From assembly GCA_965262645.1 (NCBI GenBank), contig CBDHFO010000017.1:1252134-1316133 (forward strand): a DNA stretch of 64,000 bases, read 5' to 3'. How positions within the stretch are numbered: the stretch's first letter is position 1; each line of letters begins with the position of its first letter. This document shows positions 106-56,684 of this stretch, one piece after another. This stretch comes from Candidatus Marinacidobacterium sp. GTDB taxonomy: Bacteria > Acidobacteriota > Vicinamibacteria > Marinacidobacterales > Marinacidobacteraceae. A program made the translations under genes and the position numbers. The notes below the pieces were generated by a model that saw nothing but the letters and a program-made list of their open reading frames with translations, searched no databases and had not been told where the DNA came from.

Positions 106-284
106 TTAGCAGTCCGTGGACCAGGAAGCCCGAGCACCGAAAGCGGTGAGGCACCCGGCTGACAAGGCGCGATTCGGGAGGAATACCGAGTGTATTCCGA
201 CTGAAGCGGAACGCAGAGCGAAGCGGTTCAGCCGGGATGGATCGCCGCTCGAATGCCGGGCTACTTGGTTCACGGGCTGCTCAG
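106..284 (+). repeat. F1 hairpin repeat, copy 1 (diverged), forward orientation
   Basis: TTAGCAGTCCGTGGACCAGGAAGCCCG...GGCTGACAAGGCGCG...GGGAGGAATACCGAGTGTATTCC...CAGCCGGGATGGATCGCC...CGGGCTACTTGGTTCACGGGCTGCTCAG. Collinear with the copy at 934..1117. The arms pair over about 23 positions with three G-T wobbles on the + strand. Confidence 0.85.
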
Positions 285-844
285 GTCAGGGAAAGGAACG
301 AGGCGGAATCGGTCCACTGGCCCGCTTCGAACTTGAAAAGGCGCGACTTGTCGATGAGCAGTTGGCCGTCCTCCGCGAGGCTCACGCCGACGCGTTCCAG
401 CGGGCGGGGCGCCGGGCCCTCGAAGTTGATCCCCGTCGCGTAGAACCCGCTCCCGTGACAGGGACACTTGAACTTGCTCTCGGCCTCGAGCCAGTTCGGC
501 GTACATCCCAAGTGGGTGCAGATGGTGGAGAGGGCGTAGATCTTTTCCTCGTCCCGGACGATCCACACCTGGTAGCGCTCCTTGAAACGGGTATCCACCA
601 CCCCGATCGAGAAGTCAGCCGGAAAGCCCGCCTTGAACTCCGAAGGCGGCTCCGTCAGGACGTTCGGGAACATGAACCGGCCCACGGCGGTGAGCCCGGC
701 GGCCATGGCAGCCGTGAAAACAGCCCAGCCGATGGCCAGAAAAGGAAATTCCCGGCGGGTGACCTTTTTGGCGGCGGCGGAGGCTCGTTTGGGGGCCGGC
801 GCACGGGCGGACCGGGTTGCTGGACTCGCCGGAGGGTCAGGCAT
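281..844 (-). CDS. Rieske [2Fe-2S] protein of a cytochrome bc-type complex
   Basis: CTHLGCTPNW...KCPCHGSGF are the two Rieske cluster-binding boxes. There is an N-terminal hydrophobic anchor. The TGA stop at 283..281 lies in the last bases of F1 copy 1. Confidence 0.85.
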   Translation of the reverse strand: MPDPPASPATRSARAPAPKRASAAAKKVTRREFPFLAIGWAVFTAAMAAGLTAVGRFMFPNVLTEPPSEFKAGFPADFSIGVVDTRFKERYQVWIVRDEEKIYALSTICTHLGCTPNWLEAESKFKCPCHGSGFYATGINFEGPAPRPLERVGVSLAEDGQLLIDKSRLFKFEAGQWTDSASFLSLT

Positions 845-933
845 GGGCTGGATTCAGAGGGGTGTGGGATCGGCGCGGAATTCTAACGGAAGGCTCTCAG
901 AATCGGTCCACGGATTTCCGCGCGTGCCGCCCC

Positions 934-1117
934 AACAGCCTGTGGTGGAACCCGGGTGAGCGCCGAGAGCGGCGAGGCGCCCGGCTGACAAGGCGCGTGA
1001 GGGAGGAATACCTGGTGTATTTCGACCGAAACGAAACGCAGAGCGCCGCGAAGCGACGCGGTGAACAGCCGGGATGCATCGCCGCTCGAACGCCTGGGTT
1101 TCGCCACAGGCTGTTAG
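934..1117 (+). repeat. F1 hairpin repeat, copy 2 (reference copy without core-box insertions), forward orientation
   Basis: AACAGCCTGTGG...CCACAGGCTGTT termini. Hand folding gives a 25-bp outer stem (four G-T wobbles), a 9-bp stem (GAGCGGCGA/TCGCCGCTC), an 8-bp stem (CCCGGCTG/CAGCCGGG) and a roughly 75-nt apical domain containing GAGGGAGGA. Confidence 0.9.
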
Positions 1118-2005
1118 TCACGGACGCGGCCCACCGGGTCGCCGACCTTCGGCAGCGAGAGCCGAGAGCGCGGCCGCCCGGACTCGCAGGTCGGGATCAC
1201 CCGCCGCCACCTCCTCGAGCCGCGCCCGGACGACCGGGGTTTCGAGGACGCCCGCCGCCTGAACCGCACTCAGCCGCGCCAGGACCCTTTCGCCTTCCAG
1301 CATTCCCGGGACGCCCGCCCAGTATTCCGGTTCCATCATCCCGAGGAGCCGCTCCCCCGCAGCCTCGTCTCCGATTCGGGCAAGCGCCACGACGGCGTTC
1401 ACGGAGACATCGAGGATCGGATCCTCGACCGCTCGACTCAAAGCGGCGGCAGCCGCCGGATCACCGATCGCGCCGAGCCCATAAACCGCCATGGTCCGCA
1501 GCCCCGCATCGTCGGCCCGGCTGGCCTCGCCAAGCGCCGAGACCGCGGCTCCCCCACCGATGGAGCCGAGCGCCCAGGCGGCATAGACCCGCACGGTTTC
1601 ATCCGGATCGGCAAGCGCCTCCGTCAAGACGGAAACGGCGGTGGGCTCCGAGAGCGTTCCCAGCGCCAGCGCGAGGTATTGGCGCACCCAGGGATCCGCC
1701 GGGGCTTGCTCCTCTCCAAACGCTCGCACCAGGTCGGGGCCGAGCGCGCCGAATTCTCCGGGCTCGCCATGCTGGATCCGGTTTGCGAGCTCGAACGCCG
1801 CCTGCCTCCTCTCCCGGTGTCCCCCGGCACGGATTCGCTGGAGGTGTTCTTGGGCGGTCGAGTCGTCGGAAACCAGCCACGCGAACCCGAGGAAGATCCC
1901 GACGCCGAGTACCACGACCAGCATGGGGATCACGAAGAACTGGAGCAGGGTCCGGCCGAAAGAGACGTCGCCGGGGTCCGGAGCGGGGGAGGAGTTTTCG
2001 GTCAT
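1118..2005 (-). CDS. HEAT-repeat (PBS-lyase-like) protein with N-terminal TM helix
   Basis: Repeated ...VRxxAAxALGxIGdpaA.. units (HEAT/PBS lyase style) and the hydrophobic segment FFVIPMLVVVLGVGIFLGFAWLV. I trimmed the 487-aa ORF to the ATG at 2005 because upstream codons run through F1 copies 3 and 4. No clear SD, so the start is uncertain. Confidence 0.6.
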   Translation of the reverse strand: MTENSSPAPDPGDVSFGRTLLQFFVIPMLVVVLGVGIFLGFAWLVSDDSTAQEHLQRIRAGGHRERRQAAFELANRIQHGEPGEFGALGPDLVRAFGEEQAPADPWVRQYLALALGTLSEPTAVSVLTEALADPDETVRVYAAWALGSIGGGAAVSALGEASRADDAGLRTMAVYGLGAIGDPAAAAALSRAVEDPILDVSVNAVVALARIGDEAAGERLLGMMEPEYWAGVPGMLEGERVLARLSAVQAAGVLETPVVRARLEEVAAGDPDLRVRAAALSALAAEGRRPGGPRP

Positions 2006-2007
2006 CT

Positions 2008-2193
2008 TTAGCAGCCGGTAGTGGAACCCGGGTGAGCGCCGAGGCTGGCCAGTCTCCCGGTGGGGGCGAGGCGCCCGGCTGACAATGCGCGTGAAGGAGG
2101 AGCCCCCACCCGGAGAACCGGCCCGAGTGTATGTCGACCGAAACGCAACGCAGAACACCAGTTCTCCCGGTGGGGGGGCGCAGCGGAGTGGTG
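2008..2193 (+). repeat. F1 hairpin repeat, copy 3 (right arm truncated, fused head-to-tail to copy 4)
   Basis: TTAGCAGCCGGTAGTGGAACCCGGGTGAGCGCCGAG...GACCGAAACGCAACGCAGAAC...GGTGAACAGCC runs directly into the left terminus of the next copy. Contains three core-box variants. Confidence 0.85.
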
Positions 2194-2456: not shown

Positions 2457-3461
2457 TCAGAGGCGCTCGAGATCCCGAATCGTACGGAGATCCCGGAAGA
2501 TCCCTTCGAAGGTCGGGATGTCCACAGTCTGGCGTGGATCGGTATAGGCCGTATCGGGATGCGTATGCACGGCGATCGCAAGTCCGGATGCGCCGGCCGC
2601 GAGAGCAGCGCGGGCCAGCGGTCGAACCCGGTCCCGCTCGGCGACTGCGTGCGAGGGGTCCACCAATACCGGCAGATGCGAAGTGCGCCGCACCACCGGC
2701 ACCGCGTGGAGGTCGAGGAGCGTGCGCCGCTGGCCCCCAGCTCGGATTCCCCGTTCGCAAAGGATCACGTCCCGCTTCTGTCGGGCCAGGAGGGATTCCG
2801 CGGCCATCAGCCACTCTTCGACCGTTGCCGACGGACCACGTTCCAGAATGACCGGCTTCGGGAGGCTGGCGGCGATCTCCAACAGGGCTTCGTTCTCCAT
2901 ATGCCGGCCGGCGATCTGGACCAGATCTACGTGCTCGGCGACCCGCTCCGCGGAACGCGGATCCACGATTTCCGAAACGACCGGAAGTCCCGTCTCTTCC
3001 CGGACCCGATCCAGAGTGTGCAGGCCCTCGTCGCCCACACCGCCGAAGTGGTAGGGGCCGATCCGTTCCGACCACAAGCGGGCGCGGAACAGGTCGGCTC
3101 CTGCCGCTCGGACCGCGCGGGCGATGTCCACGGTGCGGGCCTCGGTTTCGATGCTACAGGGTCCCGCAATCACCACCGCGTCGGGGCCGCCGACCGTCAC
3201 GCCGGCAACCTCCACGACGGTGTCCGCCGGATGCACTTCGCGGCTGACCAGCTTGAAGGGCTTGGTGACCGGAATACAGTGCGCGACGCCCGGGAGCCGG
3301 ACCAGGAACGATGGATCCACGGGCCCACGATTCCCGGTGACGCAGATGGCGGTCCGGTCGGCACCCGGAACCCGGAGCGGCGTGAATCCCATGTCGCGAA
3401 TCGCGGTTTCCACGCGCCGGCATTGCTCTTCGGTGGGGACCGCCCCCATGATGACCAACAT
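2457..3461 (-). CDS. 3-deoxy-7-phosphoheptulonate (DAHP) synthase, type I-beta with N-terminal ferredoxin-like regulatory domain
   Basis: AGPCSIE...GAD.FR core and C-terminal DPSH..G motifs typical of KDO8PS-like DAHP synthases. A roughly 80-aa N-terminal extension resembles the Thermotoga-type enzyme. It is the last gene of the trp string. Confidence 0.8.
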   Translation of the reverse strand: MLVIMGAVPTEEQCRRVETAIRDMGFTPLRVPGADRTAICVTGNRGPVDPSFLVRLPGVAHCIPVTKPFKLVSREVHPADTVVEVAGVTVGGPDAVVIAGPCSIETEARTVDIARAVRAAGADLFRARLWSERIGPYHFGGVGDEGLHTLDRVREETGLPVVSEIVDPRSAERVAEHVDLVQIAGRHMENEALLEIAASLPKPVILERGPSATVEEWLMAAESLLARQKRDVILCERGIRAGGQRRTLLDLHAVPVVRRTSHLPVLVDPSHAVAERDRVRPLARAALAAGASGLAIAVHTHPDTAYTDPRQTVDIPTFEGIFRDLRTIRDLERL

Positions 3462-3478
3462 GGTTCTTCCTTTCGCTG

Positions 3479-4276
3479 TTAACCGCTTGCGGTGAGTTGA
3501 AGCACCGCGGAACGGTAACCGGCGATCAGGTCATCCGCGTCCCCCGCCCTTCGGTAAAGGCGTTCGACGGCCCGCGCGAGGTGGCTCCCGACGACCGCGA
3601 TCCGCGCGCCGGCTTCGAAGCCGCGAACGACCTGAGTGCGGTCCGACAGCCCAAAACCGAGACACACGGGAACCTGCACAACTCCGGCGACTTCGGCGAC
3701 CCGGCGAAGGACGCCGGAGAACCCGCCGCGACGAACGCCGGTGACGCCCTGGAAGCCCGCGAGGTAAACGAAACAGGAGTCCCCGGCGAGGCGTTTGAGA
3801 CGCGGCGCCGGGGTGAGGGGCCCCGCCAGTTCAACGTGCCCGAGTCGGGCGCGCCGGCACGCCCGGCGGAGCGGAGCGGCCTCCTCCAGCGGTATATCCG
3901 GGACGAGCAGCGAAGAGGCGCCGGCATCGCACACGGTGTCGGTGAACCGTTCGTATCCGATCCGATGCACCAGATTCCCGTACACCAGCAGGTTGAGCGG
4001 TACTCCCGGACAGGTCTTTGCGATCCGCGCCAGAAGTTCGAACCCGCGGAACGTTGAGGTGCCTCCGGCAAGCGCGCGGCTCGCCGCCGCCTGGATCGCT
4101 GGACCATCGGCGACCGGATCGCTATAGGGAAATCCGATCTCGAGCATCCGGGCACCCGCCGAGACCGCCGTCCGCGCCAGCTCCACACACAGGTCAGGAG
4201 TCGGATCTCCGAGCACCAGAAACGGGGAAACCGCCGGCCCCTCCCCCAGCGTGGTACGGAGCGCGGCGAGGCTCAT
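3479..4276 (-). CDS. trpA: tryptophan synthase alpha chain
   Basis: [20 protein letters not shown] motif. The ATG at 4276 overlaps the trpB stop (ATGA), so the longer ORF start at 4330 is rejected. Confidence 0.9.
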
Positions 4277-8344: not shown

Positions 8345-8594
8345 TTAGCAGGCTGTGGCGAAACTCGGGTGCGATCCATTCGCGGCGCCGAGCGCCGCGG
8401 GGGAGGGGTGTGGGGAGGGGTTTCCCCTCCCCACGAAAGACGATGGCGCGGGCCCCCACCGGGAGAACTGGCGCGGAGCGATTCGCGCCATCACCCCGTG
8501 GGGAAAGCGCCCCGCACGCGCACAAATCGTCGGAATTGCCGCACGTACCGTTCCGGAAATCGTGCGGGGTGCTTTTTCCACGGGCTGTCGGTAG
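8345..8594 (+). repeat. F2 repeat, copy 1 (reference orientation), carries one core box at 8453..8471
   Basis: TTAGCAGGCTGTGGCGAAAC...GGGGAGGGGTTTCCCCTCCCC...CCCCGTGGGGAAAGCGCCCCGCACGCG...GTGCGGGGTGCTTTTTCCACGGGCTGTCGGTA. Collinear in reverse with 54121..54338 and 55207..55425. Confidence 0.8.
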
Positions 8595-8607
8595 GCGAAG
8601 CGGGATC

Positions 8608-10213: not shown

Positions 10214-10600
10214 ATGCCTATATACGAATATCGCTGCAACGACTGCGACGTAGTCTTCGAAGCCCTCCAGCGTCTCAGCGATGAACCGCTGGATGTCTGC
10301 CGGCACTGTGGTGGATCGGCCAGGAAGATCATTTCCAGCCCCGCCATCCATTTCGTAGGTAGTGGCTGGTACGTGACCGACTACGCCCGGAAAGCAGGGG
10401 AGAAAGGCGCAAACGGCAACAACGGCGCGTCCGCGAAAGGCGAGGATTCGGGTAAGACGGATTCGGAGAAGATGGATTCTGGCAAGACGGATTCGGGGAA
10501 CAGGGCCGGCAAGGAGAAGGCGGGGCAGAAGGCCGGCGCCGCAAGCGGCGCCAAGCCCTCCTCTTCCGGGAGCGAGTCGCGGGCCGGCTCGCCGTCGTAG
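10214..10600 (+). CDS. FmdB-family zinc-ribbon protein with low-complexity tail
   Basis: MPIYEYRCNDC...CRHCGG (CxxC...CxxC zinc ribbon typical of the FmdB/CxxC_CxxC_SSSS family). The tail has GKTDSEKMDSGKTDSG repeats. Confidence 0.8.
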   Translation: MPIYEYRCNDCDVVFEALQRLSDEPLDVCRHCGGSARKIISSPAIHFVGSGWYVTDYARKAGEKGANGNNGASAKGEDSGKTDSEKMDSGKTDSGNRAGKEKAGQKAGAASGAKPSSSGSESRAGSPS

Positions 10601-10613
10601 CAGCCTGGGTACC

Positions 10614-14087: not shown

Positions 14088-14292
14088 TTAACAGCCGGTG
14101 GCAAAACCCACGCGGCGTTCGGCGCGGGCTGCATCCCGGCTGAACCACTCCGCTTCGCTGCGTTCTGCGTTGCGTTTCGGTCGGAATACACCCGGGCCAG
14201 TTCTCCCGGTGGGGGCTCCTCCCTCACGCGCCTTGTCAGCCGGGCGCTTCCCGCACCTCGGCGCTCACGGGGGTTTCACCACCGGCTGTTAA
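14088..14292 (-). repeat. F1 hairpin repeat, copy 5, reverse orientation
   Basis: TTAACAGCCGGTGG...GCGTTGCGTTTCGGTCGGAATACACCCGGGCCAGTTCTCCCGGTGGGGGCTCCTCCCTCACGCGCCTTGTCAGCCGGG...CCACCGGCTGTTAA. Perfect 14-bp terminal inverted repeat. Inner arm mismatches are G-T only in the forward sense. Confidence 0.9.
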
Positions 14293-22475: not shown

Positions 22476-22482
22476 CCCCGGG

Positions 22483-23051
22483 CTAGCCCGGATTTCTCAT
22501 ACTCGGGAGCGCTCGCCGAGTCGCAGAAGGCGCCACGCGGACGCTGAACATGGCGCATGGCGCCCATGCCACCAAGCGGAGCGACGCGCAGGCAAGGGAG
22601 CCCCCACCGGGAGAACTGGGCCGACCTCTGGCCAGTTCTCCCGGTGGGGGCCGGTACCGCCCCGCGCAGCGGGGCGAGCGGCGCAGATCTGAGTGAGCGG
22701 AAGCGCGGCCGGGCACCGGAACGCCACCTCCTGGGATGGGGACAGTGCCGAGACCTGAACCATCCCGGTGTGCGGCGATACGCGACTCCGCCCGCCTCCG
22801 GCGGGCTGTGCCGGGCCCCACCGGGAGAACTGCCCGGAGGTCGGCGTTCCCTGACTGGCGGCACCATCTGGATGGTGGCGTACCTGTGAGACCTGCTCTT
22901 TCGCAGCAACGCGCTGGAAGTCGGCGTTCCCTATCCGACACGCCGTCAGGTGGGTCGGGATCCGCGTTTCACATGGAACCGTCTTCCTCGTCAACAGGTT
23001 GCGGTTCCGCGGGGTGCGCTTCGGGCCGTGAGTATGAGAAATGCGGACTAG
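22483..23051. mobile_element. F3: 569-bp non-coding element with about 20-bp terminal inverted repeats (MITE-like), carrying three core boxes
   Basis: Left end CTAGCCCGGATTTCTCATACTC. The right end reverse-complements to CTAGTCCGCATTTCTCATACTC. Internal inverted core-box doublet at 22601..22650. Direct repeat GGA(G/A)GTCGGCGTTCCCT at 22836 and 22916. No credible ORF. It fills the whole gap between two convergent genes. Confidence 0.6.
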
Positions 23052-23062
23052 CGGCCTACGGA

Positions 23063-24863: not shown

Positions 24864-25104
24864 CTAACAGCCTGTGGTGGAACCCGGGTGAGCGCCGAGA
24901 GCGGTGAGGCCCAGTTCTCCCGGTGGGGGTCCGGCTGACAAGGCGCGTGAGGGAGGAATACCGGGTGTATTTCGACCGAAACGCAACGCAGAACGCCAGT
25001 TCTCCCGGTGGGGGGGCGAAGCGGAGTGGTTCAGCCGGGATGCATCGCCGCTCGAGCCCCCACCGGGAGAACTGGGCCGCCTGGGTTTCACCACAGGCTG
25101 TTAA
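24864..25104 (+). repeat. F1 hairpin repeat, copy 6, forward orientation, three core boxes
   Basis: CTAACAGCCTGTGGTGGAACCCGGGTGAGCGCCGAGAGCGG...GAGGGAGGAATACCGGGTGTATTTCGACCGAAACGCAACGCAGAAC...GGGTTTCACCACAGGCTGTTAA. Confidence 0.9.
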
Positions 25105-27117: not shown

Positions 27118-27193
27118 TTACAGCCTGTGGTGGAACCCGCGTGAGCGCCGAGGCTGGCCAGTTCTCCCGGTGGGGGCGAGGCGCCCGGCTGAA
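27118..27193 (+). repeat. F1 repeat, copy 7 (left arm only)
   Basis: TTACAGCCTGTGGTGGAACCCGCGTGAGCGCCGAGGCTGGCCAGTTCTCCCGGTGGGGGCGAGGCGCCCGGCTGA, then homology stops. Confidence 0.8.
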
Positions 27194-27201: not shown

Positions 27202-30018
27202 CTAGAAAGCGTGGCCGATCGTGAAATGCCACTGCCCGCGCGGGGCATCACCGATGTCGCCGAGGCGGATTCCGTAATCGAAACGCAGCGGCCCGAGCGG
27301 AGTGTTCCATCGCAAGCCAGCGCCTACGTTGTGGCCGAGGTCTCCCACCCGAAAGGAGTTCACTTCGCTGTAGACCCCGCCATGATCCGAGAAAACCGCG
27401 CCGCGCAGACTGCTCAGGATGGGGAATCGAACCTCCAGATTGCCGACGATCAGCAGGTTGCCACCGACCGGGTAACCGCTCGGGTCGAGCGGTCCCGCGC
27501 GGTCCAGTTTGTAACCACGCAAGGAGGTCGCTCCACCGGCGAAGAATCGCTCGGTGATCGGTACGAGAGCCGGCTCGTCCGCGCCCAGAGTCCACGCAAG
27601 ACCGAGTCGGCCCGCAACCGCAACGACTACCTGTCCCCCGACCGGGAAAAACAGATATTGCTGTGCGAGGCCCTTCAGGAAGGGCGCTCGGGAGCGGAGA
27701 AGTGCGGACGACCACTCCACATCCAGGATGCCGAAACGGCCCCGACGAGGATCCACCGGGTCATCGCGGGTGTCCGTGACCACGGAAGCCGACACCGCCG
27801 AGAGCCAGAGATTGTCCGCAAAGTTGCGGTCAATCTGATTCGGATTGATCTTCAGATCGAACAGCTCGCTCGTGGTCAGGTCATAGCGGAGAAAAAAACT
27901 TCGCCCGAGGACTCTCCGGGTAACCTGCACGCCGATTCCAGAGCGGATGAAATCCAGGCTCTCCCGGTCCTGCGACTCACGGAACGCGCTCACGAAGATA
28001 GGGACCTCGCCCTCCACGCTCTCCGCCCCCCGGTAGGTCGCCACCATCCGCGTGCCCTTGAGCGAAAACCGGCCGAACAGACTCAAGGTATGGCCCATCC
28101 CGAAGAGATTGTTCCGGGTCCATTCGCCATCTCCCCGGACCTGCTCGCGTTCGCTGTACCCCGCGCCGTAGCCGATGCTGGTGCGCGGGCCCTCCACAAC
28201 CCGGATCAGCACGTTGCGCTCGCTGATCGGTTCCTCGGGCTCGAGGAGATTCACGTCGACGCTGCGAAAGATCCCCATGGAAACGAGGCGCCGGCGCACC
28301 TCGAGGAGATCGCCGCTCCCCAGCGGATCGCCCTCCTCAAAAGGAAGCCGGGACCGGATCACTGAATCCCTCGTGGTATCGAGGCCCGCGACGATGATCC
28401 CTCCGACCGTGAAGTAGTTGCCGGGTCGGATCCGGAAGACGACCTCCGCATCGTGGCTGATCGGATCGACCGGAGCCTCGACCTCCACCACGGCTTCCAG
28501 ATATCCCCGGTTTCGATGAAACGTCTCGAGATCTTCGCGGGCGCCCACGATTTCTTCGGCTACGTAGGGTGTACCCGGCGCAATGGCGGCCACCTCCGAC
28601 AGGTCGGTATCGGTGAATGCGGAACCCCCTTCGAAACGCACCGCCCGCACCGAGGCCGCCGGACCCGGATCAACCCGCACATTGAGATCAAGCGAGAGGC
28701 CTTCGTCGGCCGGGACGGGCGGGCCCGGCTCCAGCGGCACCACCTCAACCCGGAAATAACCCCGCCGCCGCAGCGTTCGGCGCAGGCTGTCGGTCAGGGC
28801 CCTCCACTCTTCTTCGCGGTAGGGACGGCCGGGCCGCAGCGGCAGAAGGGCTTCGGCGACGCTATCCGCCTCCTCCGGAGGGGCGCCTTCCGATGAGACC
28901 GCGCCGACAACGTAACGCGGGCCCGGGTCGGCGGAGAACCGGAAGGTCTGCCGGAGCCCATCCGGACTCTCGACGCTCTCCACCACCACGGTACCGTCCC
29001 GATGTCCTTCCCGACGAAGCTCGGCAAGGAGTTGCTGCCTGGTCGCTTCGATCGCATCCAAAGTGAGCGTGCGCTCCGAAAGGGAATCCACGACGCGCTC
29101 GGCAGCCCCCCCGGAAGCACCGAACCCTTCCACTTCCAGGGTAACCTCGGGGCCGGGCTCCACCGACAGAACCACCCGAACATCTCCCGTGTCGATGGGC
29201 CTCCAATCGAGACTGGCAGTGGCGAAGAGGAAGCCTCGATCCCGAAGTCTTTCCTCGACTTCGGGAAGGCGCGCAGCAACTTCGGCTTCGAGCCAGGGAT
29301 CCTCTGGAGAAACCCGGAGCGCGGGGATGACGTTCCGGCCGAGCTCGTCTTCCACCCCGACGGCCTCGATGAAGGCGACCCGGGCGCGCGCTCCCGAGGT
29401 CACCCGCACCTCCAGGCGCGCATCGCGGCCGTCCGGCACGCTCCGGATGTCCACTTCCGCGGTCAGGTAACCCCGCGAGCGCAACCACCCTTCGGCTGTC
29501 GCTCCTCGAACGGGCAGGTCGTCCGGAACGGATTCGCCGACCTCGAGACCGAGCGTGGCGATCAGCCCCAAATCCTCTCCGGGAGGGGCACCGTCAACGC
29601 TAAACCGGGCGATACTTGGAATGGGGTCGAGTTCAAAGACGAGCCGAAGTCCCCCACCCGACGCCGCCTCGGAACGAATCCGGACGTCGCGGAAGCGTCC
29701 GAGAGCAAACACCTGCTTCACAGATTGCCGGGCGACCAGTGGCCGGAAGCGAGTTCCGGGACGAACCGAGATCAGCCGGGACACCTCTTCGGGTACCGGG
29801 TCGTTGCTCCCATCCGCCCAGCGCACCACCACCGACTCCACGCGCTGTGACAACGGATCTTCCGCCTGACCGGCGCCGGTCTGGCCAGCGGCAAGGCGCC
29901 CGCTCGGGATCGCCGACAAGCCAGCGGCGAGGAGGATCGCTCCCGGACGGCCTAGGCTGCGCCAGGAATCCTTAACGGCCTGTGGACAAAGTCGCACGGC
30001 ATTCAAGCGGCGATGCAT
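27202..30018 (-). CDS. bamA: outer membrane protein assembly factor BamA
   Basis: POTRA-like repeats, then a beta-barrel ending ...GLRWNTPLGPLRFDYGIRLG...WHFTIGHAF (C-terminal aromatic). The N-terminal 96 codons of the ORF run through F1 copy 8. The first usable in-frame start (ATG at 30018) lies inside the repeat, so the start is uncertain. Confidence 0.8.
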   Translation of the reverse strand: MHRRLNAVRLCPQAVKDSWRSLGRPGAILLAAGLSAIPSGRLAAGQTGAGQAEDPLSQRVESVVVRWADGSNDPVPEEVSRLISVRPGTRFRPLVARQSVKQVFALGRFRDVRIRSEAASGGGLRLVFELDPIPSIARFSVDGAPPGEDLGLIATLGLEVGESVPDDLPVRGATAEGWLRSRGYLTAEVDIRSVPDGRDARLEVRVTSGARARVAFIEAVGVEDELGRNVIPALRVSPEDPWLEAEVAARLPEVEERLRDRGFLFATASLDWRPIDTGDVRVVLSVEPGPEVTLEVEGFGASGGAAERVVDSLSERTLTLDAIEATRQQLLAELRREGHRDGTVVVESVESPDGLRQTFRFSADPGPRYVVGAVSSEGAPPEEADSVAEALLPLRPGRPYREEEWRALTDSLRRTLRRRGYFRVEVVPLEPGPPVPADEGLSLDLNVRVDPGPAASVRAVRFEGGSAFTDTDLSEVAAIAPGTPYVAEEIVGAREDLETFHRNRGYLEAVVEVEAPVDPISHDAEVVFRIRPGNYFTVGGIIVAGLDTTRDSVIRSRLPFEEGDPLGSGDLLEVRRRLVSMGIFRSVDVNLLEPEEPISERNVLIRVVEGPRTSIGYGAGYSEREQVRGDGEWTRNNLFGMGHTLSLFGRFSLKGTRMVATYRGAESVEGEVPIFVSAFRESQDRESLDFIRSGIGVQVTRRVLGRSFFLRYDLTTSELFDLKINPNQIDRNFADNLWLSAVSASVVTDTRDDPVDPRRGRFGILDVEWSSALLRSRAPFLKGLAQQYLFFPVGGQVVVAVAGRLGLAWTLGADEPALVPITERFFAGGATSLRGYKLDRAGPLDPSGYPVGGNLLIVGNLEVRFPILSSLRGAVFSDHGGVYSEVNSFRVGDLGHNVGAGLRWNTPLGPLRFDYGIRLGDIGDAPRGQWHFTIGHAF

Positions 30019-30209
30019 CCCGGCTGAAGCGCCCCCCCACCGGGAGAACTGGCGCTTCGCGTCGTTCGTCGTTGCGCTTCGGTCGAAATACACCCGGGCC
30101 AGTTCTCCCGGTGGGGGCTCCTCCCTCACGCGCCTTGTCAGCCGGACCCCCACCGGGACTGGGCCTCCCCGCTCTCGGCGCTCCCCCGGGTTCCACCACA
30201 GGCCGTTAA
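29972..30209 (-). repeat. F1 hairpin repeat, copy 8, reverse orientation (arms from two different subfamilies)
   Basis: TTAACGGCCTGTGGACAAAGTCGCACGG...GGTCGAAATACACCCGGGCCAGTTCTCCCGGTGGGGGCTCCTCCCTCACGCGCCTTGTCAGCCGG...GGGTTCCACCACAGGCCGTTAA. Confidence 0.9.
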
Positions 30210-30326
30210 GCCGGGCGGCCCGCTCGCAGAATCGCGGGGCCCAGGTCCTCTCGCGGGGGCTCACCCAGCGACCCGCAGTTCTTCCGGTCGGGGCCTCGTC
30301 ACTCACGCGAATTGATCCACGAGACC

Positions 30327-36279: not shown

Positions 36280-36376
36280 CAGGTGGTCGGCCACCTGCCA
36301 GGATTTTTCCCGAGCCGCAACGTCGCCCACGGCAGCAGGGAACGCATCCCGTACGCGTTTTCGGCCATCACCCCGG

Positions 36377-36457
36377 CAGTCCGTGGACAGTGTTCTGGCG
36401 GCCCGGTCCTCCCGCGGGAGGCTTGGCGCTCACACCACTCTACCCACAGGCTGTTAG
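36377..36457 (-). repeat. F1 repeat, short internally deleted copy, reverse orientation
   Basis: CAGTCCGTGGACAGTGTTCTGGCGGCCCGGTCCTCCCGCGGG...GGCGCTCACACCACTCTACCCACAGGCTGTTAG. Resembles the deleted copy at 51153..51276. Confidence 0.6.
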
Positions 36458-38020: not shown

Positions 38021-38125
38021 TCAGCGGCCTGTGGACGAAGTCACGCGGCCCGGTTCGGCGGGCGAACAGCGATGCCCGTTCTCCCAGTGCGGCCCCCGAC
38101 GCTCACGCGATTTGTCCCCAGGATG
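38021..38125 (-). repeat. F1 repeat, decayed copy, reverse orientation
   Basis: TCAGCGGCCTGTGGACGAAGTCACGCGGCCCGGTT...CCCGTTCTCCCAGTGCGGCCCCCGACGCTCACGCGATTTGTCCCCAGG parallels the ...GTGGACA.AGTC.CGCGG / core box / CTCACGCGCCTTGTCAGCC order. Confidence 0.5.
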
Positions 38126-38146
38126 CTGGCCGGACCCGGCGGCGGG

Positions 38147-38794: not shown

Positions 38795-39013
38795 TCGCGC
38801 CCGGCACCCGCCGGGCCGGAATCCGGCCCGGAAGTCTGAACCCGATCCCCGATGCGATTCTACCGTCTGCCGGGAACGCCGGGCCAGTTCTTCCGGTGGG
38901 GGTCTTCAGACCGGCATCGCCAGCCGCAGGCTGGCAAAACTCCCAGCGCGATCGGGACACCTGATCCTTGGCAATCGCGGGCATTTCAAGGCCTCATTCA
39001 CCCCGTCGATCCC

Positions 39014-40888: not shown

Positions 40889-40984
40889 CACACGCGCCTT
40901 GTCAGCCGGGCCCCCACCGGGAGAACTGGCCCCACCGGGAGAACTGGCCGGGCTCGGCGCTCACCCGGGTTCCACCACAGGCTG

Positions 40985-40988
<4 letters not shown>
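40889..40988 (-). repeat. F1 repeat, copy 9 (partial; one arm plus two tandem core boxes), reverse orientation
   Basis: CACGCGCCTTGTCAGCCGGGCCCCCACCGGGAGAACTGGCCCCACCGGGAGAACTGGCCGGGCTCGGCGCTCACCCGGGTTCCACCACAGGCTGTTAG. Confidence 0.85.
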
Positions 40989-46022: not shown

Positions 46023-47024
46023 ATGTCAACCAGTCAATGGTACGTAGCGGAAGGAGGCCGGACGCTTGGTCCGTTCTCCAGCGCCGATGTCCTGCAGGCT
46101 CTCCAGAGCGGACGCTGGACCGCGGCGACCATGGTTTGCCCTCTCGGGGAAACCTCCTGGAAACCCGCCTCCAGCATCCCCGAACTGCGGGTCGGCATCG
46201 GCGCCGGCTCAGCCCCGCCCCGTCCTCGGGCGCCGCGGCGGATGCACGAAGTGGACTACCGGATCGTCGGCGAGGAAATGCAGTTCGTGGAAGTCGAGCT
46301 CGATCCCAGCGAAGGGGCGATCGCCGAAGCGGGCGCCATGATGTTCATGAGCTCCGGAATCGAGATGCAGACCATCTTCGGCACCGGTGGAGAGAGCGGC
46401 TTCATGGACAAGGTGCTCGGCGCCGGAAAGCGGCTGCTGACCGGCGAGAGCCTCTTCATGACCGAGTTCGTGAACCGCGGCGCCGGAAAGCAGCACGTGG
46501 CCTTCGCTTCACCCTACCCAGGCAAGATCCTGCCGGTGCGACTCGACGAACTCGGGGGCCGGCTTATCGCGCAGAAGGATGCCTTCCTGTGCGGCGCCAA
46601 AGGGGTGTCGATCGGGATCGCCTTTCAGCGGAAGATCGGTACGGCGCTCTTCGGAGGCGAGGGTTTCATCATGCAGTCGCTCGAGGGCGACGGCCTGGCC
46701 TTCCTGCACGCCGGCGGCACGATCATCAAGAAGGAACTGGCGGCCGGCGAGAACCTGCGGGTAGACACCGGGTGTCTGGTCGCGCTCGCCCCTTCGGTGA
46801 ACTACGACATTCAGTCCGTGGGCGGGATCAAGTCCGCCCTCTTCGGCGGAGAGGGATTCTTCTTCGCCAGCCTCACGGGACCGGGGTGGGTCTGGCTGCA
46901 GTCCCTGCCCTTCAGCCGATTGGCCGGCCGGATCCATCAGGCCGCGCCGCAGACAGGCCGCGGTGGCAAGGGAGAGGGTTCGCTCCTCGGCCGGCTCTCC
47001 GGGGTCGGTTGGGACGGCTCTTAG
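46023..47024 (+). CDS. GYF_2 (DUF4339) domain fused to AIM24/TIGR00266-family protein
   Basis: WYVAEGGRTLGPFSSADVLQALQSGRWTAATMVCPLGETSWKPASSIPEL is GYF_2-like. Then Y.I.G...Q.VEV.L.P.E...AE.GAMM.M...I.M.T and GEGFIMQSLEGDG.AFLHAGG are AIM24-like. AGGAGA precedes the ATG. The TAG stop is the TTAG terminus of F1 copy 10. Confidence 0.65.
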   Translation: MSTSQWYVAEGGRTLGPFSSADVLQALQSGRWTAATMVCPLGETSWKPASSIPELRVGIGAGSAPPRPRAPRRMHEVDYRIVGEEMQFVEVELDPSEGAIAEAGAMMFMSSGIEMQTIFGTGGESGFMDKVLGAGKRLLTGESLFMTEFVNRGAGKQHVAFASPYPGKILPVRLDELGGRLIAQKDAFLCGAKGVSIGIAFQRKIGTALFGGEGFIMQSLEGDGLAFLHAGGTIIKKELAAGENLRVDTGCLVALAPSVNYDIQSVGGIKSALFGGEGFFFASLTGPGWVWLQSLPFSRLAGRIHQAAPQTGRGGKGEGSLLGRLSGVGWDGS

Positions 47025-47207
47025 CAGCCTATGGAAAAAGTCACGCGGCATTCGAACGGCGATGCATCCCGGCTGAACCGGGCCGCTTCGCGACCCTCAT
47101 CGTTGCGTTTCGGTCGGAATACACTCGGTATTCCTCCCTCACGCGCCTTGTCAGCCGGGCGCCTCGCCGTTCTCGGTGCTCACGTCACTTTCTCCACAGG
47201 CTGCTAG
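47021..47207 (-). repeat. F1 hairpin repeat, copy 10, reverse orientation, arm-variant subfamily without core boxes
   Basis: TTAGCAGCCTATGGAAAAAGTCACGCGG...GCGTTTCGGTCGGAATACACTCGGTATTCCTCCCTCACGCGCCTTGTCAGCCGGG...CACGTCACTTTCTCCACAGGCTGCTAG. A solo terminus-like fragment follows (CAGCCTGCGGACAA, 47208..47221). Confidence 0.9.
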
Positions 47208-47226
47208 CAGCCTGCGGACAACTGAC

Positions 47227-47829
47227 TTGGCCGAAACCACGATTTCCCAAGCTGCCCGGGCGTTCCTGGAGGGTTTCGCCTGGGACGGCTGGATTCCCGA
47301 CGAAAGAGCCACGCTTCTCTTCGTGGTGCGAAACGGCAAGATCCTGCTCATCGAGAAACATCGGGGACTCGGCCGGGGAAAGATCAATGGACCCGGGGGA
47401 CGGTTGGAGCCGGGGGAGACCCCGAGGGCCGCAGCCATCCGCGAAGTCGAGGAAGAGATTCGGGTCCGGCCCACCGGGATCCATCCTGCGGGTGAACTTC
47501 GATTCCAGTTCGTGAACGGGTATGCGATCCACGTCTATGTCTTTCGCGCCGACGGATTCGTCGGGAGCCCGGCGCCGACCGAGGAAGCCACCCCGGTCTG
47601 GGCGGATGTCGAGTCCATTCCCTACGAACGCATGTGGCAGGACGACGTCATCTGGCTTCCGCTACTCCTCAAGAACCAGCCTTTTGCCGGCCGCTTCGTG
47701 TTCGATGGCGACCTCATGCTGACAAACGAGATCGAACTTCACAGTGGCTCAGCACTCGGTTCGTGGGACGCCGCACCCGCGGCGCCAAACCAGCCACCAA
47801 TCCCCCGTGAGGCGGCCGGCGCGGACTGA
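47227..47829 (+). CDS. NUDIX hydrolase (MutT-like)
   Basis: GKINGPGGRLEPGETPRAAAIREVEEEIRV is the Nudix box GX5EX7REUXEEXGU. The ORF top at 47176 lies inside the F1 repeat, so I start at the in-frame TTG at 47227. Very uncertain. Confidence 0.65.
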   Translation: MAETTISQAARAFLEGFAWDGWIPDERATLLFVVRNGKILLIEKHRGLGRGKINGPGGRLEPGETPRAAAIREVEEEIRVRPTGIHPAGELRFQFVNGYAIHVYVFRADGFVGSPAPTEEATPVWADVESIPYERMWQDDVIWLPLLLKNQPFAGRFVFDGDLMLTNEIELHSGSALGSWDAAPAAPNQPPIPREAAGAD

Positions 47830-51152: not shown

Positions 51153-51276
51153 CCAGCAGCCTGTGGACACAGTCGCGCGGCCCGGTTCTCCCGGTGGGGG
51201 CTCCTCCCTCGCGCGCCTTGTCGGCCGGGCGACTCGCCGGGCTCGGCGCTCACCCGGGTCCACCACCGGCTGCTAG
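51153..51276 (-). repeat. F1 repeat, copy 11, reverse orientation, internally deleted
   Basis: CCAGCAGCCTGTGGACACAGTCGCGCGG|CCCGGTTCTCCCGGTGGGGGCTCCTCCCTCGCGCGCCTTGTCGGCCGGG...CACCCGGGTCCACCACCGGCTGCTAG. Confidence 0.8.
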
Positions 51277-51654: not shown

Positions 51655-51832
51655 AACAGCCGGTGGTGGAACCCGGGTGAGCGCCGAGGCCGGCCAGTTC
51701 TCCCGGTGGGGGCAAGGCCCAGTTCTCCCGGTGGGGCCAGTTCTCCCGGTGGGGGCCCGGCTGACAAGGCGCGTGAGGGAGGAGCCCCCACCGGGAGAAC
51801 TGGGCCGCGTGGGTTTCACCACCGGCTGTTAA
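51655..51832 (+). repeat. F1 repeat, copy 12, forward orientation, apical domain deleted, three tandem core boxes at 51694..51755
   Basis: AACAGCCGGTGGTGGAACCCGGGTGAGCGCCGAGG, then the box three times, then GGCTGACAAGGCGCGTGAGGGAGGAGCCCCCACCGGGAGAACTGGGCCGCGTGGGTTTCACCACCGGCTGTTAA. Confidence 0.85.
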
Positions 51833-54514: not shown

Positions 54515-54561
54515 CACTGGTTCGCGTACTAAAAATGCTATCCGGGAGGCGTCGTTGAGTA

Positions 54562-55209
54562 TTGATGCGGTTTGAAGTGGGAGACAAGGTGATCTACCCG
54601 AATCAGGGGATCAGCGTCGTCGAGAGCATTGAACTCACCAACGGGGCGGCGGGGCCGAGCTTCTATCGTCTGCGCCTGCTGGCGAAGTCCACACTGGTCA
54701 TGGTGCCGGTGGAAAAGGTTGATGAAGTCGGGCTGCGCCGGATCATGACCGAAGGTGATGTCGAGGAGGTTCTCGACGTCCTCGAAAACGGCGCGGTGGA
54801 TGAACAGGTCAACTGGAAGACCCGTTACAAGGACAACTCCGACCGCATGAAGGGCGGTTCTCCGGTGGAGGTCGCTGGCGTCCTCAAAGGTCTCTTCTAC
54901 CTGAGCGAGCGCAAGACCCTTTCCTTCCGCGAGAAGCGGATGCTCGACCGGGCGCACCAGCTCACCGTGACCGAGGTCGCCGAAGTCGCCAACGAGACCC
55001 TCGAGGCGGTGGAACGCAAGGTCGTGGAGGCGCTGCGCCGGAGCCGGAACGGAATGGTTGGCCACGAGGCCCGAGAGGGAGAGCGCGAAGGAAGCGCCGC
55101 CGGCGCCGCCACCAGCGTAGTGCCCCTGCGACCGCCCAAGCGGCGGCGGGTGGCCAAGGGCTTGGACAGCGGGCGGCGTCCCGTCTCCATCTCGATAAAC
55201 CGCTACTAG
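54562..55209 (+). CDS. carD: CarD/CdnL-family transcriptional regulator
   Basis: F.VGDKVIYPNQGISVVESIE.......FYRLRLL...T.MVPV is the CarD_TRCF RNAP-interacting domain, followed by a helical C-terminal domain. The TAG stop is the terminus of F2 copy 3. Confidence 0.8.
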   Translation: MMRFEVGDKVIYPNQGISVVESIELTNGAAGPSFYRLRLLAKSTLVMVPVEKVDEVGLRRIMTEGDVEEVLDVLENGAVDEQVNWKTRYKDNSDRMKGGSPVEVAGVLKGLFYLSERKTLSFREKRMLDRAHQLTVTEVAEVANETLEAVERKVVEALRRSRNGMVGHEAREGEREGSAAGAATSVVPLRPPKRRRVAKGLDSGRRPVSISINRY

Positions 55210-55425
55210 CGCCCGGGGGGAAGCACCCCGCTCGCGATCACGACGGGAAACACCCCACGTCTGCGGAATCGGTCGGATGCGGGGCGTTTCCCTCTCTGGA
55301 TGGCGGAGCGCATCGCTTCGCGATCCGCTCCACCGTCTTTCGTTTCGAGGGGATACCCCTCCCGAGCGGCGCTCGGCGCCGCGGGCTCGGCCTGGCGCCA
55401 GGCGACTTCCTCCGCACGCTGCTAG
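55207..55425 (-). repeat. F2 repeat, copy 3, reverse orientation
   Basis: TAGCGCCCGGGGGGAAGCACCCCGCTCGCGATC...GCGGGGCGTTTCCCTCTCTGGATGGCGGAGCGCATCGCTTCGCGATCC...GAGGGGATACCCCTCCC...CCGCACGCTGCTAG. Confidence 0.7.
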
Positions 55426-55484
55426 ACGAGCCCATCCGCGCCGGAACAGAATTCGGCGCGTGACTGCCTGAGCGGCCCATACTC

Positions 55485-56264
55485 ATGGTTCGAGAGTCTG
55501 TCCGGCGCAGGCCACTACGGACCGTACGCGCCATCCTCGGCACCATTGGGATCGCCGCGGTTTTGCCGATTCTGCTGTTTCTCGGGGCGTTCCTGATGCC
55601 GCTAGGGGATGTCTTCAGCGGCCGGCATCGTCTTGGCTACGAGATCGGACGCCAGATCATTGCCGTTCTCTGGTTCGTTGGCGGAATCCGGATGCACGAA
55701 GTGGACCGGTGGCGTGTCGAACCGTTCCGTACTCGGGTGTACATGCCGAACCACCAGTCGCTGACGGACATGCCGCAGGTGCTCTACCTCCTGCCCAAAG
55801 CCAACGGAACGCTCATCAAGAAAGAGTCATTCCGGGTGCCGCTGCTCGGCTGGGGCCTCCGCGCCGCGGGATTCACGCCCGTGGATCGGTCGGGTGTGAA
55901 GGCAGCCCGAAAGAGCCTCGAAGCGGCGGTCACCGCTCTCAAGGGTGGTCGATCGTTCGTGATCGCGCCCGAAGGAACCCGTAGTCGCACCGGGGAACTT
56001 GGCCCGTTCAAAACGGGCGGATTCCGTCTCGCAATCCAGGCGGAGGTCCCGATCGTGCCCATCACGGTTACCGGGGCCAGGGACATCCTTCCCCCGCGCG
56101 GCAAGCTCATCTATCCGGGAACCATCCAGGTCCGGTATCACGACCCCATAGAGACCGAGGGAATCGACGGCCGGGACCGCCGGCAGATCGGGGCTCTGAT
56201 GGACCGGGTCCGGAACGCCATCCAGAGCGGGCTCGACGAAGGGGAGCCAACCGCCAGCGGATGA
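55485..56264 (+). CDS. plsC: 1-acyl-sn-glycerol-3-phosphate acyltransferase
   Basis: PNHQSLTD (HX4D) and FVIAPEGTRSRTG acyltransferase motifs. N-terminal TM. Confidence 0.8.
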   Translation: MVRESVRRRPLRTVRAILGTIGIAAVLPILLFLGAFLMPLGDVFSGRHRLGYEIGRQIIAVLWFVGGIRMHEVDRWRVEPFRTRVYMPNHQSLTDMPQVLYLLPKANGTLIKKESFRVPLLGWGLRAAGFTPVDRSGVKAARKSLEAAVTALKGGRSFVIAPEGTRSRTGELGPFKTGGFRLAIQAEVPIVPITVTGARDILPPRGKLIYPGTIQVRYHDPIETEGIDGRDRRQIGALMDRVRNAIQSGLDEGEPTASG

Positions 56265-56331
56265 TCGGTCAGAGCCAAAACGGCGGCCGAATGGAGCACC
56301 ACCCGGCGCACGCCGGCGTTCGAATTCGGCA

Positions 56332-56554
56332 CCAGCAGCCGGTGGCGAAACCCGCGCGGCCCAGTTCTCCCGGTGGGGGCTCGGCCGGCGATCCATCCCG
56401 GCTGAACCGCGTCGCTGCGCGCCGCTCATCGTTGCGTTTCAGTCGAAATACACCCGGGCCAGTTCTCCCGGTGGGGGCTCCTCCCTCACGCGCCTCGTCA
56501 GCCGGGCGCCTCGCCGGCCTCGGCGCTCACGTGGGTTCCGCCACCGGCTGTTAA
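56332..56554 (-). repeat. F1 hairpin repeat, copy 13, reverse orientation
   Basis: CCAGCAGCCGGTGGCGAAACCCGCGCGGCCCAGTTCTCCCGGTGGGGGC...GCGTTTCAGTCGAAATACACCCGGGCCAGTTCTCCCGGTGGGGGCTCCTCCCTCACGCGCCTCGTCAGCCGGG...GGGTTCCGCCACCGGCTGTTAA. Confidence 0.9.
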
Positions 56555-56684
56555 CCGCGTCGCTGCGCGCCGCTCATCGTTGCATTTCGGTCGAAATACA
56601 CCCGGTATTCCTCCCTCACGCGCCTTGTCAGCCCGGCGCCTCACCGGCCTCGGCGCTCACGTGGGTTCCGCCACCAACTACTAG
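56555..56684 (-). repeat. F1 repeat, copy 14 (partial, fused head-to-tail to copy 13), reverse orientation
   Basis: Restarts at CCGCGTCGCTGCGCGCCGCTCATCGTTGCATTTCGGTCGAAATACACCCGGTATTCCTCCCTCACGCGCCTTGTCAGCC...GGGTTCCGCCACCAACTACTAG. Confidence 0.85.

Follow-up and report, generated by a model that had tools for sequence, protein, structure and literature searches.

The DNA analysed here (the window) is a stretch of 64,000 nucleotides of contig CBDHFO010000017.1 of Candidatus Marinacidobacterium sp., and its intergenic regions hold copies of a long hairpin repeat, which we call F1. A reading made earlier from the sequence alone (the sequence-only reading) had listed 16 intervals of the window as one repeat family, and each of them does hold a member of F1. 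A repeat search of the window linked all 16 intervals, in both orientations. A profile hidden Markov model (HMM) built from 56 clean copies matched 14 of them, and a covariance model (CM) run with filters off added the two weakest, 36373-36455 (E 0.014) and 38021-38127 (E 0.018). The best four copies of the window score 148-217 bits with the CM. The block order given in the sequence-only reading was also correct. Furthermore, the 25-nt core GGCTGACAAGGCGCGNNNGGGAGGA has 11 matches with at most 3 mismatches in the window, against 0 in 100 dinucleotide-preserving shuffles.

The 16 intervals sum to 2,675 nt and so make up 4.2% of the window or, by our gene calls, about 23% of the DNA left as non-coding. 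By the same calls F1 occupies 13 of the 32 gaps of at least 100 nt, so the statement that nearly every gap holds a copy and that the intergenic space is saturated was an overstatement. Seven of the intervals are fragments or deletion derivatives (2008-2193, 27118-27193, 36377-36457, 38021-38125, 40889-40988, 51153-51276 and 56555-56684). Two features had been overlooked. Much of the variation in length of F1 is due to a separate exact 18-nt module, S = CCAGTTCTCCCGGTGGGG, and the interval 8345-8595 has F1-type ends with another interior.

The copies lie as follows, with positions in F1 given in model coordinates. At 106-284 (+) there is a full-length but divergent copy with the core GATTCGGGAGGA (HMM 108-281, 118.5 bits; CM 147.9 bits); it lies between the stop of the Rieske gene and the start of the next gene, which is cytochrome b in relatives, and is antisense to both. 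The reference copy at 934-1117 (+; CM 183.6 bits), a basic 184-nt unit with no S, lies between the stop of a HEAT-repeat gene and the start of the Rieske gene. At 2008-2193 (+) a 5' part of F1 (model 1 to about 129; HMM model 1-113) with S modules is joined at GGTGA/ACAGCC (a slash marks a joint) to a full copy at 2194-2431 (+; HMM 1-184, 135 bits). The latter has three S, in the slots after model positions of about 36, 74 and 156, with S copies at 2288-2305 and 2385-2402. The full copy at 14088-14292 (-; HMM 156.7 bits; CM 170.3 bits) has one S and lies between convergent genes, and the TAA stop of the right-hand gene is its flanking TTAA. The full copy at 24864-25104 (+; HMM 157 bits), with three S (slots of about 45, 121 and 156), lies between the start of an amidase gene and the stop of a sigma-70 gene and is antisense to both (Pfam).

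A 5' fragment with one S (model 2-68; HMM E 6e-8) follows at 27118-27193 (+). The full copy at 29972-30209 (-; HMM 128 bits) has three S and lies between the BamA and TamB genes (Pfam); it is the only full-length copy of the window that is sense-oriented within a co-directional gene pair. At 36377-36457 (-; CM E 0.014, ends read directly) a miniature derivative, made up of both ends and a degenerate S-like centre, lies between the biotin carboxylase and carboxyltransferase genes (Pfam), and 38021-38125 (-; CM E 0.018, below the HMM threshold) is a degenerate derivative. The 5' fragment at 40889-40988 (-; model 1-68; HMM E 3.6e-8) has two tandem S (40912-40947), and the TAA stop of the HslU gene is within the TTAG that flanks it. 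The best match of the window is the basic unit at 47021-47207 (-; HMM 194.6 bits; CM 216.6 bits), of which the flanking TTAG is the TAG stop of the upstream gene. Two internal-deletion derivatives follow. The one at 51153-51276 (-; HMM 1-74; CM E 0.042) has the 5' arm and core to model 74 and then the 3' end, and the one at 51655-51832 (+; HMM two pieces; CM 40.9 bits) has the 5' arm, three S, part of the core, one reverse S and the 3' arm, its S copies spanning 51694-51803. Finally, a full copy with two S at 56332-56554 (-; HMM 141.5 bits) abuts a 5' part (model 2-130) at 56555-56684 (-; HMM 121.9 bits).

The genes near F1 confirmed by Pfam are those for the Rieske, HEAT-repeat, amidase, sigma-70, BamA (Omp85/POTRA), TamB, biotin carboxylase, carboxyltransferase and HslU proteins. 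Thus, among the operon neighbours named earlier, Rieske, BamA, TamB and HslU were confirmed; SurA was not, since the flanks of 36377-36457 and 38021-38125 are the biotin carboxylase and carboxyltransferase genes. Open reading frames (ORFs) that are long but spurious run through F1 or antisense to real genes of this high-G+C DNA at 817-2082 (+), 27202-30306 (-), 46037-47515 (+) and 59493-61808 (+). In such genomes, automatic gene calls at the repeats are likely to include false or over-extended ones.

When one genome per species was scanned for the exact pattern, at least 103 F1 stretches came up in 13 assemblies or species-level metagenome-assembled genomes (MAGs); as the scan demanded the exact core, these figures are lower bounds and represent neither copy numbers nor the true phylogenetic range. 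The F1-bearing MAGs, sponge MAGs among them, were labelled Acidobacteria or Acidobacteriota, Vicinamibacteria or 'Candidatus Marinacidobacterium', and the order Candidatus Marinacidobacterales is placed within the class Vicinamibacteria in the NCBI taxonomy. A metagenome collection held 51 further stretches, and viral contigs held no F1 core and a single match to S. On three complete chromosomes of related species (3.7-4.2 Mb) the matches were spread over the whole length in both orientations; that is, F1 is scattered genome-wide and is not confined to the region of the window. In 0.88 Mb of related loci (cited below by L numbers) the HMM gave at least 238 matches. Rfam gave nothing on F1 in the window and five related loci, either at the gathering score, where two tRNAs were the only hits, or at E of 1 or less, in line with the earlier remark that no named family was recognised. 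In the full texts searched, diagnostic F1 strings had no relevant match (a single irrelevant primer match was seen), and no paper was found under the name 'Marinacidobacterium'.

Fold and strand specificity of F1

The basic F1 unit is 183-185 nt long and reads 5'-A-R-CAGCCTGTGG ... CCACAGGCTG-Y-T-3'. Its termini are inverted repeats, that is, A-R-CAGCCTGTGG... pairs with ...CCACAGGCTG-Y-T in an outer helix of 26 pairs, and the two halves pair over their full length into a rod ending in a three-way junction. The reference copy (934-1117) had been folded by hand in the sequence-only reading. RNAfold gave the same arrangement, with an outer stem of about 25 bp, inner stems of 9 bp and about 8-11 bp and two apical hairpins, at -115.8 kcal/mol (z = -10.2 against shuffles). 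For 56 basic copies, RNAalifold predicted 62 pairs in seven helices forming this rod and junction, and in 26 of the 62 pairs both sides had changed with the pair kept. As many as 98.4% of the cells were paired, compared to 91.7% with shuffled partners and 31-41% with partners slid by 1-3 columns, and the covariation score was 0.241, which 0 of 500 shuffles reached, against 0.117. These figures are to be read as strong support and not as a probability, because the structure comes from the same alignment and the copies are related. The stems proposed from one copy thus held, and covaried, once many copies were aligned.

The centre of F1, about 60 nt (GCGCCCGGCTGACAAGGCGCGTGAGGGAGGAATACC...GTATTYCGACCGAAACGCAACG), is almost invariant in the 56 copies from 13 species, whereas the stems are variable. 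As judged from the alignment, this pattern is very unusual for a transposon relic.

The two strands of F1 are not equivalent. The strand that reads GGCTGACAAGG...GAGGGAGGA was, in each of the 56 copies, the better-folding one of the two under RNA as well as DNA parameters, and the mean fold energies of the core strand and the complement were -116 and -95 kcal/mol (RNA) or -61 and -51 kcal/mol (DNA), respectively. The 56 copies had 315 G·T cells and 16 A·C cells, and about 10% of the F1 pairs were G·U. Among 177 distinct full-length copies, 9,438 cells were Watson-Crick, 1,063 were G·T and 74 were A·C. Of the pair types other than Watson-Crick, those with a frequency of at least 5% at their position were 18 G·T against 1 A·C, but the rare ones were 41 G·T against 33 A·C, where the comparison is one of cells and pair types and not of tree-based events. 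That is, the asymmetry belongs to the variants that have spread as subfamilies, and to a much lesser degree to changes private to a single copy. From this difference we infer that the production of new copies depends on a folded single strand of the core polarity and that decay after insertion is roughly symmetric between the strands.

We also compared the orientation of F1 with that of its neighbouring genes. With gene calls from a home-made codon model, which reproduced the Pfam-checked genes, 64 of the 93 intergenic regions between co-directional genes had the folding strand running against transcription (binomial p = 0.0004). Of the four copies of the window that lie in sense orientation within gene strings, three are short derivatives. 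Because the folding strand is usually antisense, read-through mRNA would mostly contain the weaker-folding complement, and this argues against the fold being kept for a function in the neighbouring mRNA. The orientation that places the strongly folding strand in flanking transcripts appears to be selected against. On the three complete chromosomes, F1 orientation did not clearly follow whether the local GC skew was positive or negative.

A scan of F1 copies for sigma-70-type promoters found none. Intrinsic terminators (hairpin plus U-tract) had no consistent site in the copies, and their counts were near the shuffled expectation. The sequence-only reading had suggested a role in translation through GAGGGAGGA and UCCUCCCUC as Shine-Dalgarno and anti-Shine-Dalgarno sequences. 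We found no support for it: the motif lies partly inside predicted helices, S is inserted directly after GAGGGAGGA in about a third of the full-length copies, neither promoter nor terminator was found, and the GAGGGAGGA strand is, by the orientation count, usually not read through. A conserved small ORF starting from GTG after GGAGGA was rejected because S modules and indels break its frame and spacing; given the 18-nt and other indels, a conserved reading frame in F1 is impossible.

Insertion sites, turnover and old copies

At 104 non-tandem ends, the flank logo was Y (94%) T (78%) A (94%) R before CAGCC...GGCTG and Y T (96%) A (67%) R (94%) after it, and the R and Y that adjoin F1 covary. 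The logo places insertion at TA in a palindromic context (YTAR), and TA was present on both sides in 50 of 93 non-tandem copies. The inner A/T (94-96%) are more conserved than the outer T and A, so F1 may carry its own A...T and insert at T/A without duplication. Two older filled and empty pairs have a single TA at the empty site: L094 reads ccgCTAccc where L027 has CTA[GCAGCC..GGCTGC]TAG, and L062 reads ggTTAAcg where L092 has TTA[ACAGCC..GGCTG]TAG. By sequence, the flanks are compatible with a TA duplication as well as with duplication-free insertion at T/A.

The host DNA is 64-68% G+C, and many YT/AR sites in it are TAA or TAG stops or the TA that ends an earlier F1. This accounts for the position of copies close to gene ends and for the head-to-tail arrays, in which the central TA is shared. 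At 14289, 25101, 36454, 40985 and 47022, the TAA or TAG beside the copy serves as the stop codon of the adjoining gene.

The comparison of closely related loci revealed differences in F1 content. L106 and L107, although 95-97% identical to the window, do not have the reference copy, which was thus either gained or lost recently. L107 has a copy at 3338-3543 where L106, 99% identical, reads GCGGCG TGA CTCC and the window is also empty. In L069 a complete F1 lies inside the core of another F1, which is uninterrupted in L056 (94-98% identical). In the Rieske region, L106 and L107 have the ortholog of the copy at 106-284; two gaps filled in the window also hold copies in L108, at other positions, the one corresponding to 106-284 lying elsewhere within that gap; and in L109 all three gaps are empty. 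F1 has therefore been mobile recently. [quoted passage not shown]

Two further observations concern the insertion sites. At two sites where a relative has F1 and the window has none, the window has a stop codon followed by a lone F1-end-like sequence (TAGCAGCC, TAACAGC). These sites lie at 10598-10606 (TAGCAGCCT) and 3477-3485 (GCTGTTAAC on the + strand), and each may be either the vestige of a lost copy or a favoured target. An orthologous gap holds an F1 array in L003 (2198-2931) and a single F1 of the opposite orientation in L065 (6871-7077), from either independent hot-spot insertions or inversion of a palindromic element.

Other copies are old. Orthologous F1 copies were 96.9% identical between L027 and L094 (flanks 85-90%), 98.6% between L023 and L055 (flanks 83%) and 95.6% between L054 and L100 (flanks 88-91%), with flanks that are mostly coding, compared to a mean identity of 88% for random paralogue pairs within or between genomes. 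The copies of L027 and L094 are truly orthologous, because both have a private internal deletion which is in no other of the 109 loci. Such copies have been in place since before the species split. Judging from the three pairs, purifying selection seems to act in situ on at least some of the resident copies.

S modules, nested arrays and related elements

Full-length F1 copies are 183-257 nt long and fall into classes of about 183, 201, 219, 237 and 256 nt, the step being S. It occupies five slots, forward after model positions of about 36, 45 and 121 and reverse after about 74 and 156, and forward and reverse S pair together, lengthening or re-routing the stems. The window and L001-L103 contain 311 copies of S, of which 59 are outside F1. 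That is, S is a repeat in its own right, found in tandem doublets, in free inverted pairs and in other repeats as well. Examples in the window are at 2104-2121, 8454-8471, 22602-22649, 38884-38901, 40912-40947 and 51694-51803, and a free-standing inverted pair, which forms a hairpin outside F1, lies at 22597-22654 (no strand assigned; repeat search, weak CM matches on both strands, E 0.002-0.003). S is the fastest-changing part of F1, because the S content of one copy, that at 2194-2431, differs among the window, L106 and L107, which are 95-99% identical.

Several loci of the assembly CAXXLQ01 (L003, L075, L028 and L103) contain arrays in which n units of model 1-129 are followed by n units of model 129-184. 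Their junctions read GCGGTGA/ACAGCC and GGTTGT/TTGGCCGGG, and the former recurs between 2008-2193 and the following copy, so that 2008-2431 of the window is one array-type 5' unit plus a full F1. The n + n pattern looks like nesting at one internal site of F1. The short forms at 36377, 51153 and 51655 arise by internal deletion. A search for F1 ends split around a gene gave nested F1 arrays only, and orphan F1 ends led to short cargo (F2 or F3, described below) or to chance matches; one such end, in L086, runs into an ordinary gene.

F2 is a conserved 220-500-nt module (GCTGTGAAAATGCAG...GCGCGAAACCAGCGCCGATGAC...TTTTCATGCCCGGCGGGGTG...GATCATG) with no Rfam match. It sits exactly within S (CCCAGTT/.../CTCCCGGTGGGGGC) inside F1-type ends, at L081:2719-3085, L091:6362-7005, L070:4348-4610, L090:7141-7700 and L084:3500-4045. 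Because of this position of F2, S may be the collapsed ends of a larger element. F3, of about 230-250 nt, has F1-like ends and a different interior with a GGGGAGGGGTTTCCCCTCCCC hairpin. In the window it lies at 8345-8595 (no strand assigned; read directly, weak CM match at 8490-8591, E 0.022), with the ends TTAGCAGGCTGTGGCGAAA ... TTTTTCCACGGGCTGTCGG and one S. This copy is missing at the orthologous site of L091, and a similar element at L107:7560-7802 is polymorphic between L107 and L106. Another short palindromic repeat (approximately GGGAACGCCGRCCTCYGGYCGGCGTTCCC), often with S, is found at 22476-23062 and 38860-38930 of the window and in many loci. It occupies some of the gaps that have no F1; thus, there are several repeat families in the genome. 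In CAXXLQ01 contig_4, a duplication of about 5 kb (L045:410-5995 and L076:2416-8000, 98.6-99.7% identical) has F1 at matching internal positions, and its genes mostly have no Pfam match.

Mobilisation of F1 and comparison with known systems

The sequence-only reading had noted no transposase in the window, and tblastn with an IS630-family transposase or E. coli RayT likewise found none there, although not every ORF was checked with Pfam. In about 1.36 Mb of related DNA, we found neither an autonomous element ending like F1 nor a candidate enzyme; the sample covers little of each genome, so that a partner present in one copy could easily have escaped detection. RayT gave nothing real by tblastn in the same sample, and its best match (in L090) is FolD and not RAYT. 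The transposase genes seen in 0.88 Mb were of three kinds only (IS4-like, IS630-family and IS3-type OrfA).

An insertion sequence (IS) of the IS630 family at about L023:2756-3866, with HTH_33/32/29 and DDE_3 domains and its frame split in two, lies exactly in the TA between two F1 copies; the orthologous site of L055 has one F1 and no IS. Its ends are TACATAGCGCC.../...GGCGTTGTGTA, with TA on both sides. From this position it follows that a TA-targeting transposase exists in the clade. Its transposase had no other match in the 1.36 Mb by tblastn. A perfect 1,371-bp repeat (L012:1-1371 and L097:6399-7769), which is the only perfect repeat in the first 0.88 Mb, was rejected as a partner, being an IS4-like IS with unrelated ends (CCCAATACTGTTCACTTAG, CCTAG on both sides) and, by its appearance, a transposase of about 400 aa. 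Genes flanked by F1 on both sides were rejected as well, as they were mostly ordinary, apart from one IS630-family IS and one IS3-type OrfA.

Taken comprehensively, F1 copies are probably short, non-coding, non-autonomous mobile elements of the MITE or foldback type, specific to this marine and sponge-associated clade of Vicinamibacteria. They sit at YT/AR sites, many of which are the stop codons of genes or the end TA of earlier copies. The copying step would most likely pass through, or depend on, the core strand in a single-stranded folded state, as DNA or RNA, because the variants that founded subfamilies tolerate G·T and almost never A·C. We speculate that F1 is mobilised in trans and that the simplest candidate is a TA-targeting DDE transposase of the IS630/Tc1-mariner type. 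The length classes and fragments would result from exchange or insertion of S at its five slots, from internal deletions and from nesting at a single internal site. Several points weigh against this explanation. Ordinary double-strand cut-and-paste leaves the strand-specific fold, the internal compensatory changes and the invariant core unexplained. The only IS630-family IS found, that of L023, has inverted repeats (TACATAGCGCCTTAAG...) unlike the F1 ends, and the sampled DNA gave neither an autonomous F1-ended element nor an enzyme. The inner A/T outdo the outer T/A in conservation, which suits an own A...T and no duplication, and several filled and empty junctions differ by one or two extra bases at the site. 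Orthologous copies are better conserved than the flanking genes, suggesting for some copies a role in the cell that purely selfish mobility does not predict. Finally, the gene calls behind the orientation count were home-made and Pfam-checked for only about 12 genes of the window.

Other explanations have to be weighed against mobility of the MITE type. That F1 is an artefact of assembly chimeras, low-complexity G+C-rich sequence or chance palindromes is practically inconceivable: the window and most of its relatives are metagenome-assembled, so that repeats could in principle be misplaced, but this idea is already refuted by the core matches that shuffles do not give, by F1 in independent assemblies from many projects, including closed long-read chromosomes, and by orthologous copies at identical sites across species. 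A serious alternative as the mobiliser, unlikely as we think it to be, is an enzyme of the HUH type. That is, a single-copy HUH (Y1) enzyme would move F1 in the form of single-stranded DNA, as in REPIN-RAYT or IS200/IS605, recognising the folded strand as its substrate and making no target duplication. The strand-specific fold, the spread of variants with G·T and not A·C and the compensatory changes in the helices all suit such an enzyme, the better conservation of the element-proximal A/T over the outer T/A is expected without duplication, and F1 is very numerous although the genomes seem poor in IS (three transposase kinds in 0.88 Mb). However, the RayT search of the sampled DNA was negative, F1 has no GTAG-type head, its 184 nt with a three-way junction differ greatly from a REP doublet of 20-40 nt, and its orientation is not clearly tied to the sign of GC skew, unlike that of IS608 or ISDra2. 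In addition, the palindromic target Y-T-A-R, which is constrained on both sides, suits a symmetric enzyme that binds double strands.

We consider it improbable that F1 is primarily a functional structured RNA or a cis-acting RNA or DNA signal, with repetition being secondary, in which case it might be a stabiliser or processing site of mRNA 3' ends, an antisense or small RNA, or a protein-binding site. The share of G·U pairs, the compensatory changes and the invariant junction core over at least 13 species would be expected of such a molecule, the orthologous copies are 96-99% identical where mostly coding flanks are 83-90%, and bcr1 and ERIC are transcribed, structure-conserved precedents (PMC3184786; PMC10969869). 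In contrast, the folding strand is mostly antisense in co-directional regions, F1 has no sigma-70-type promoter, no U-tract terminator and no Rfam match, and the asymmetry of 18:1 in spread variants against 41:33 in private ones points to propagation and not to function at each site. Copies also come and go between near-identical genomes, and L109, which is devoid of all three Rieske-region copies, has no visible compensation. Of similarly low probability, in our opinion, is that F1 is the substrate of an undescribed bacterial mobility system, which would copy or move a high-copy element through a folded strand of fixed polarity (single-stranded DNA handled by an unrecognised enzyme, or an RNA intermediate) with no duplication, the junction core acting in recognition or catalysis and some long-lived copies being adopted by the host.

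No cultured representative of this marine and sponge-associated Acidobacteriota clade was among the genomes that we found. Provided that the window is representative, one structured repeat makes up a few per cent of these genomes, which are 3.6-4.2 Mb in size. Repeats such as F1 break short-read assemblies and confuse gene callers; they are also ready-made markers for strain typing, since they differ between genomes that are 99% identical. F1 unites features that are usually found apart: its copies turn over like transposons, show RNA-like covariation and a fold specific to one strand, share an invariant core and, where old, change slowly. This makes it well suited to the questions of what purpose such repeats are selected for and by what agent they are moved.

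Among known systems, the 127-bp MITE-like ERIC (IRU) element of Enterobacteriaceae and Vibrionaceae resembles F1 in being intergenic, in being an imperfect palindrome over its whole length with TA on both flanks, in lying in either orientation by gene ends, and in that its transposase is not known. Hulton in 1991 and Wilson and Sharp in 2006 are said to have found its sequence conservation between species unusually high. ERIC occurs in tens to hundreds of copies, with 711 in Photorhabdus (PMC10969869; PMC3184786). The two have no detectable sequence relation and belong to different phyla. F1 is longer (184 nt), has a three-way-junction core, a nested 18-nt module and nested arrays, and is set apart by its density of one per 4 kb in the window. 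The effects of ERIC on mRNA decay need co-transcription, whereas F1 is mostly antisense to its neighbours.

Correia elements contain promoters and a site for IHF, and RNase III cleaves their RNA hairpin; in contrast, the promoter scan of F1 was negative. These elements of Neisseria (CREE/NEMIS) have a TA target, terminal inverted repeats, more than 100 copies and presence or absence between strains, and their transposase is not known (PMC10969869). The target, the terminal inverted repeats and the strain-level mobility are like those of F1. The bcr1 element of the Bacillus cereus group, of about 155 bp, is a mobile intergenic repeat in which compensatory changes keep a long double-stranded fold (PMC3184786), as they do in F1. 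It has 5-bp direct repeats and is reported to be transcribed, whereas F1 has TA-centred sites with no clear duplication. Like ERIC, Correia elements and bcr1 have no sequence in common with F1 and belong to other phyla.

IS630 itself targets CTAG, and the MITEs of the IS630/Tc1-mariner type (RUP, Nezha) have a TA-centred palindromic target like that of F1; however, a strand-specific fold is no feature of that class, and the ends of the IS630-family IS in L023 are unrelated to those of F1. REP/BIME and REPIN-RAYT elements are likewise very abundant extragenic palindromes and mosaics of short modules, with a hairpin unit that is thought to move as a single strand. F1 differs from them in that its unit is much larger and has no GTAG head, that it has terminal inverted repeats and a TA site, and that no RAYT was found in the sample. 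S does form inverted pairs (22597-22654) but has no GTAG. A palindrome-associated element of the IS200/IS605 type was rejected, since the F1 ends are inverted repeats, the constraint on the flanks is symmetric and there is no clear link to GC skew. An integron attC site (RYYYAAC ... GTTRRRY) was rejected because about half of the F1 copies have AGC/GCT and not AAC/GTT, and because they lie in both orientations between housekeeping genes. By eye, the defining positions of attC, of hammerhead-like motifs (CUGA...GAAA), and of sigma-54 and IHF sites did not fit the core.

In conclusion, F1 is a previously undescribed family of structured MITE-like intergenic repeats, of the same general kind as ERIC, Correia and bcr1. 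It alone opens no new category, and what is notable in it is the fold selected on one strand, the invariant junction core and the system of 18-nt modules.

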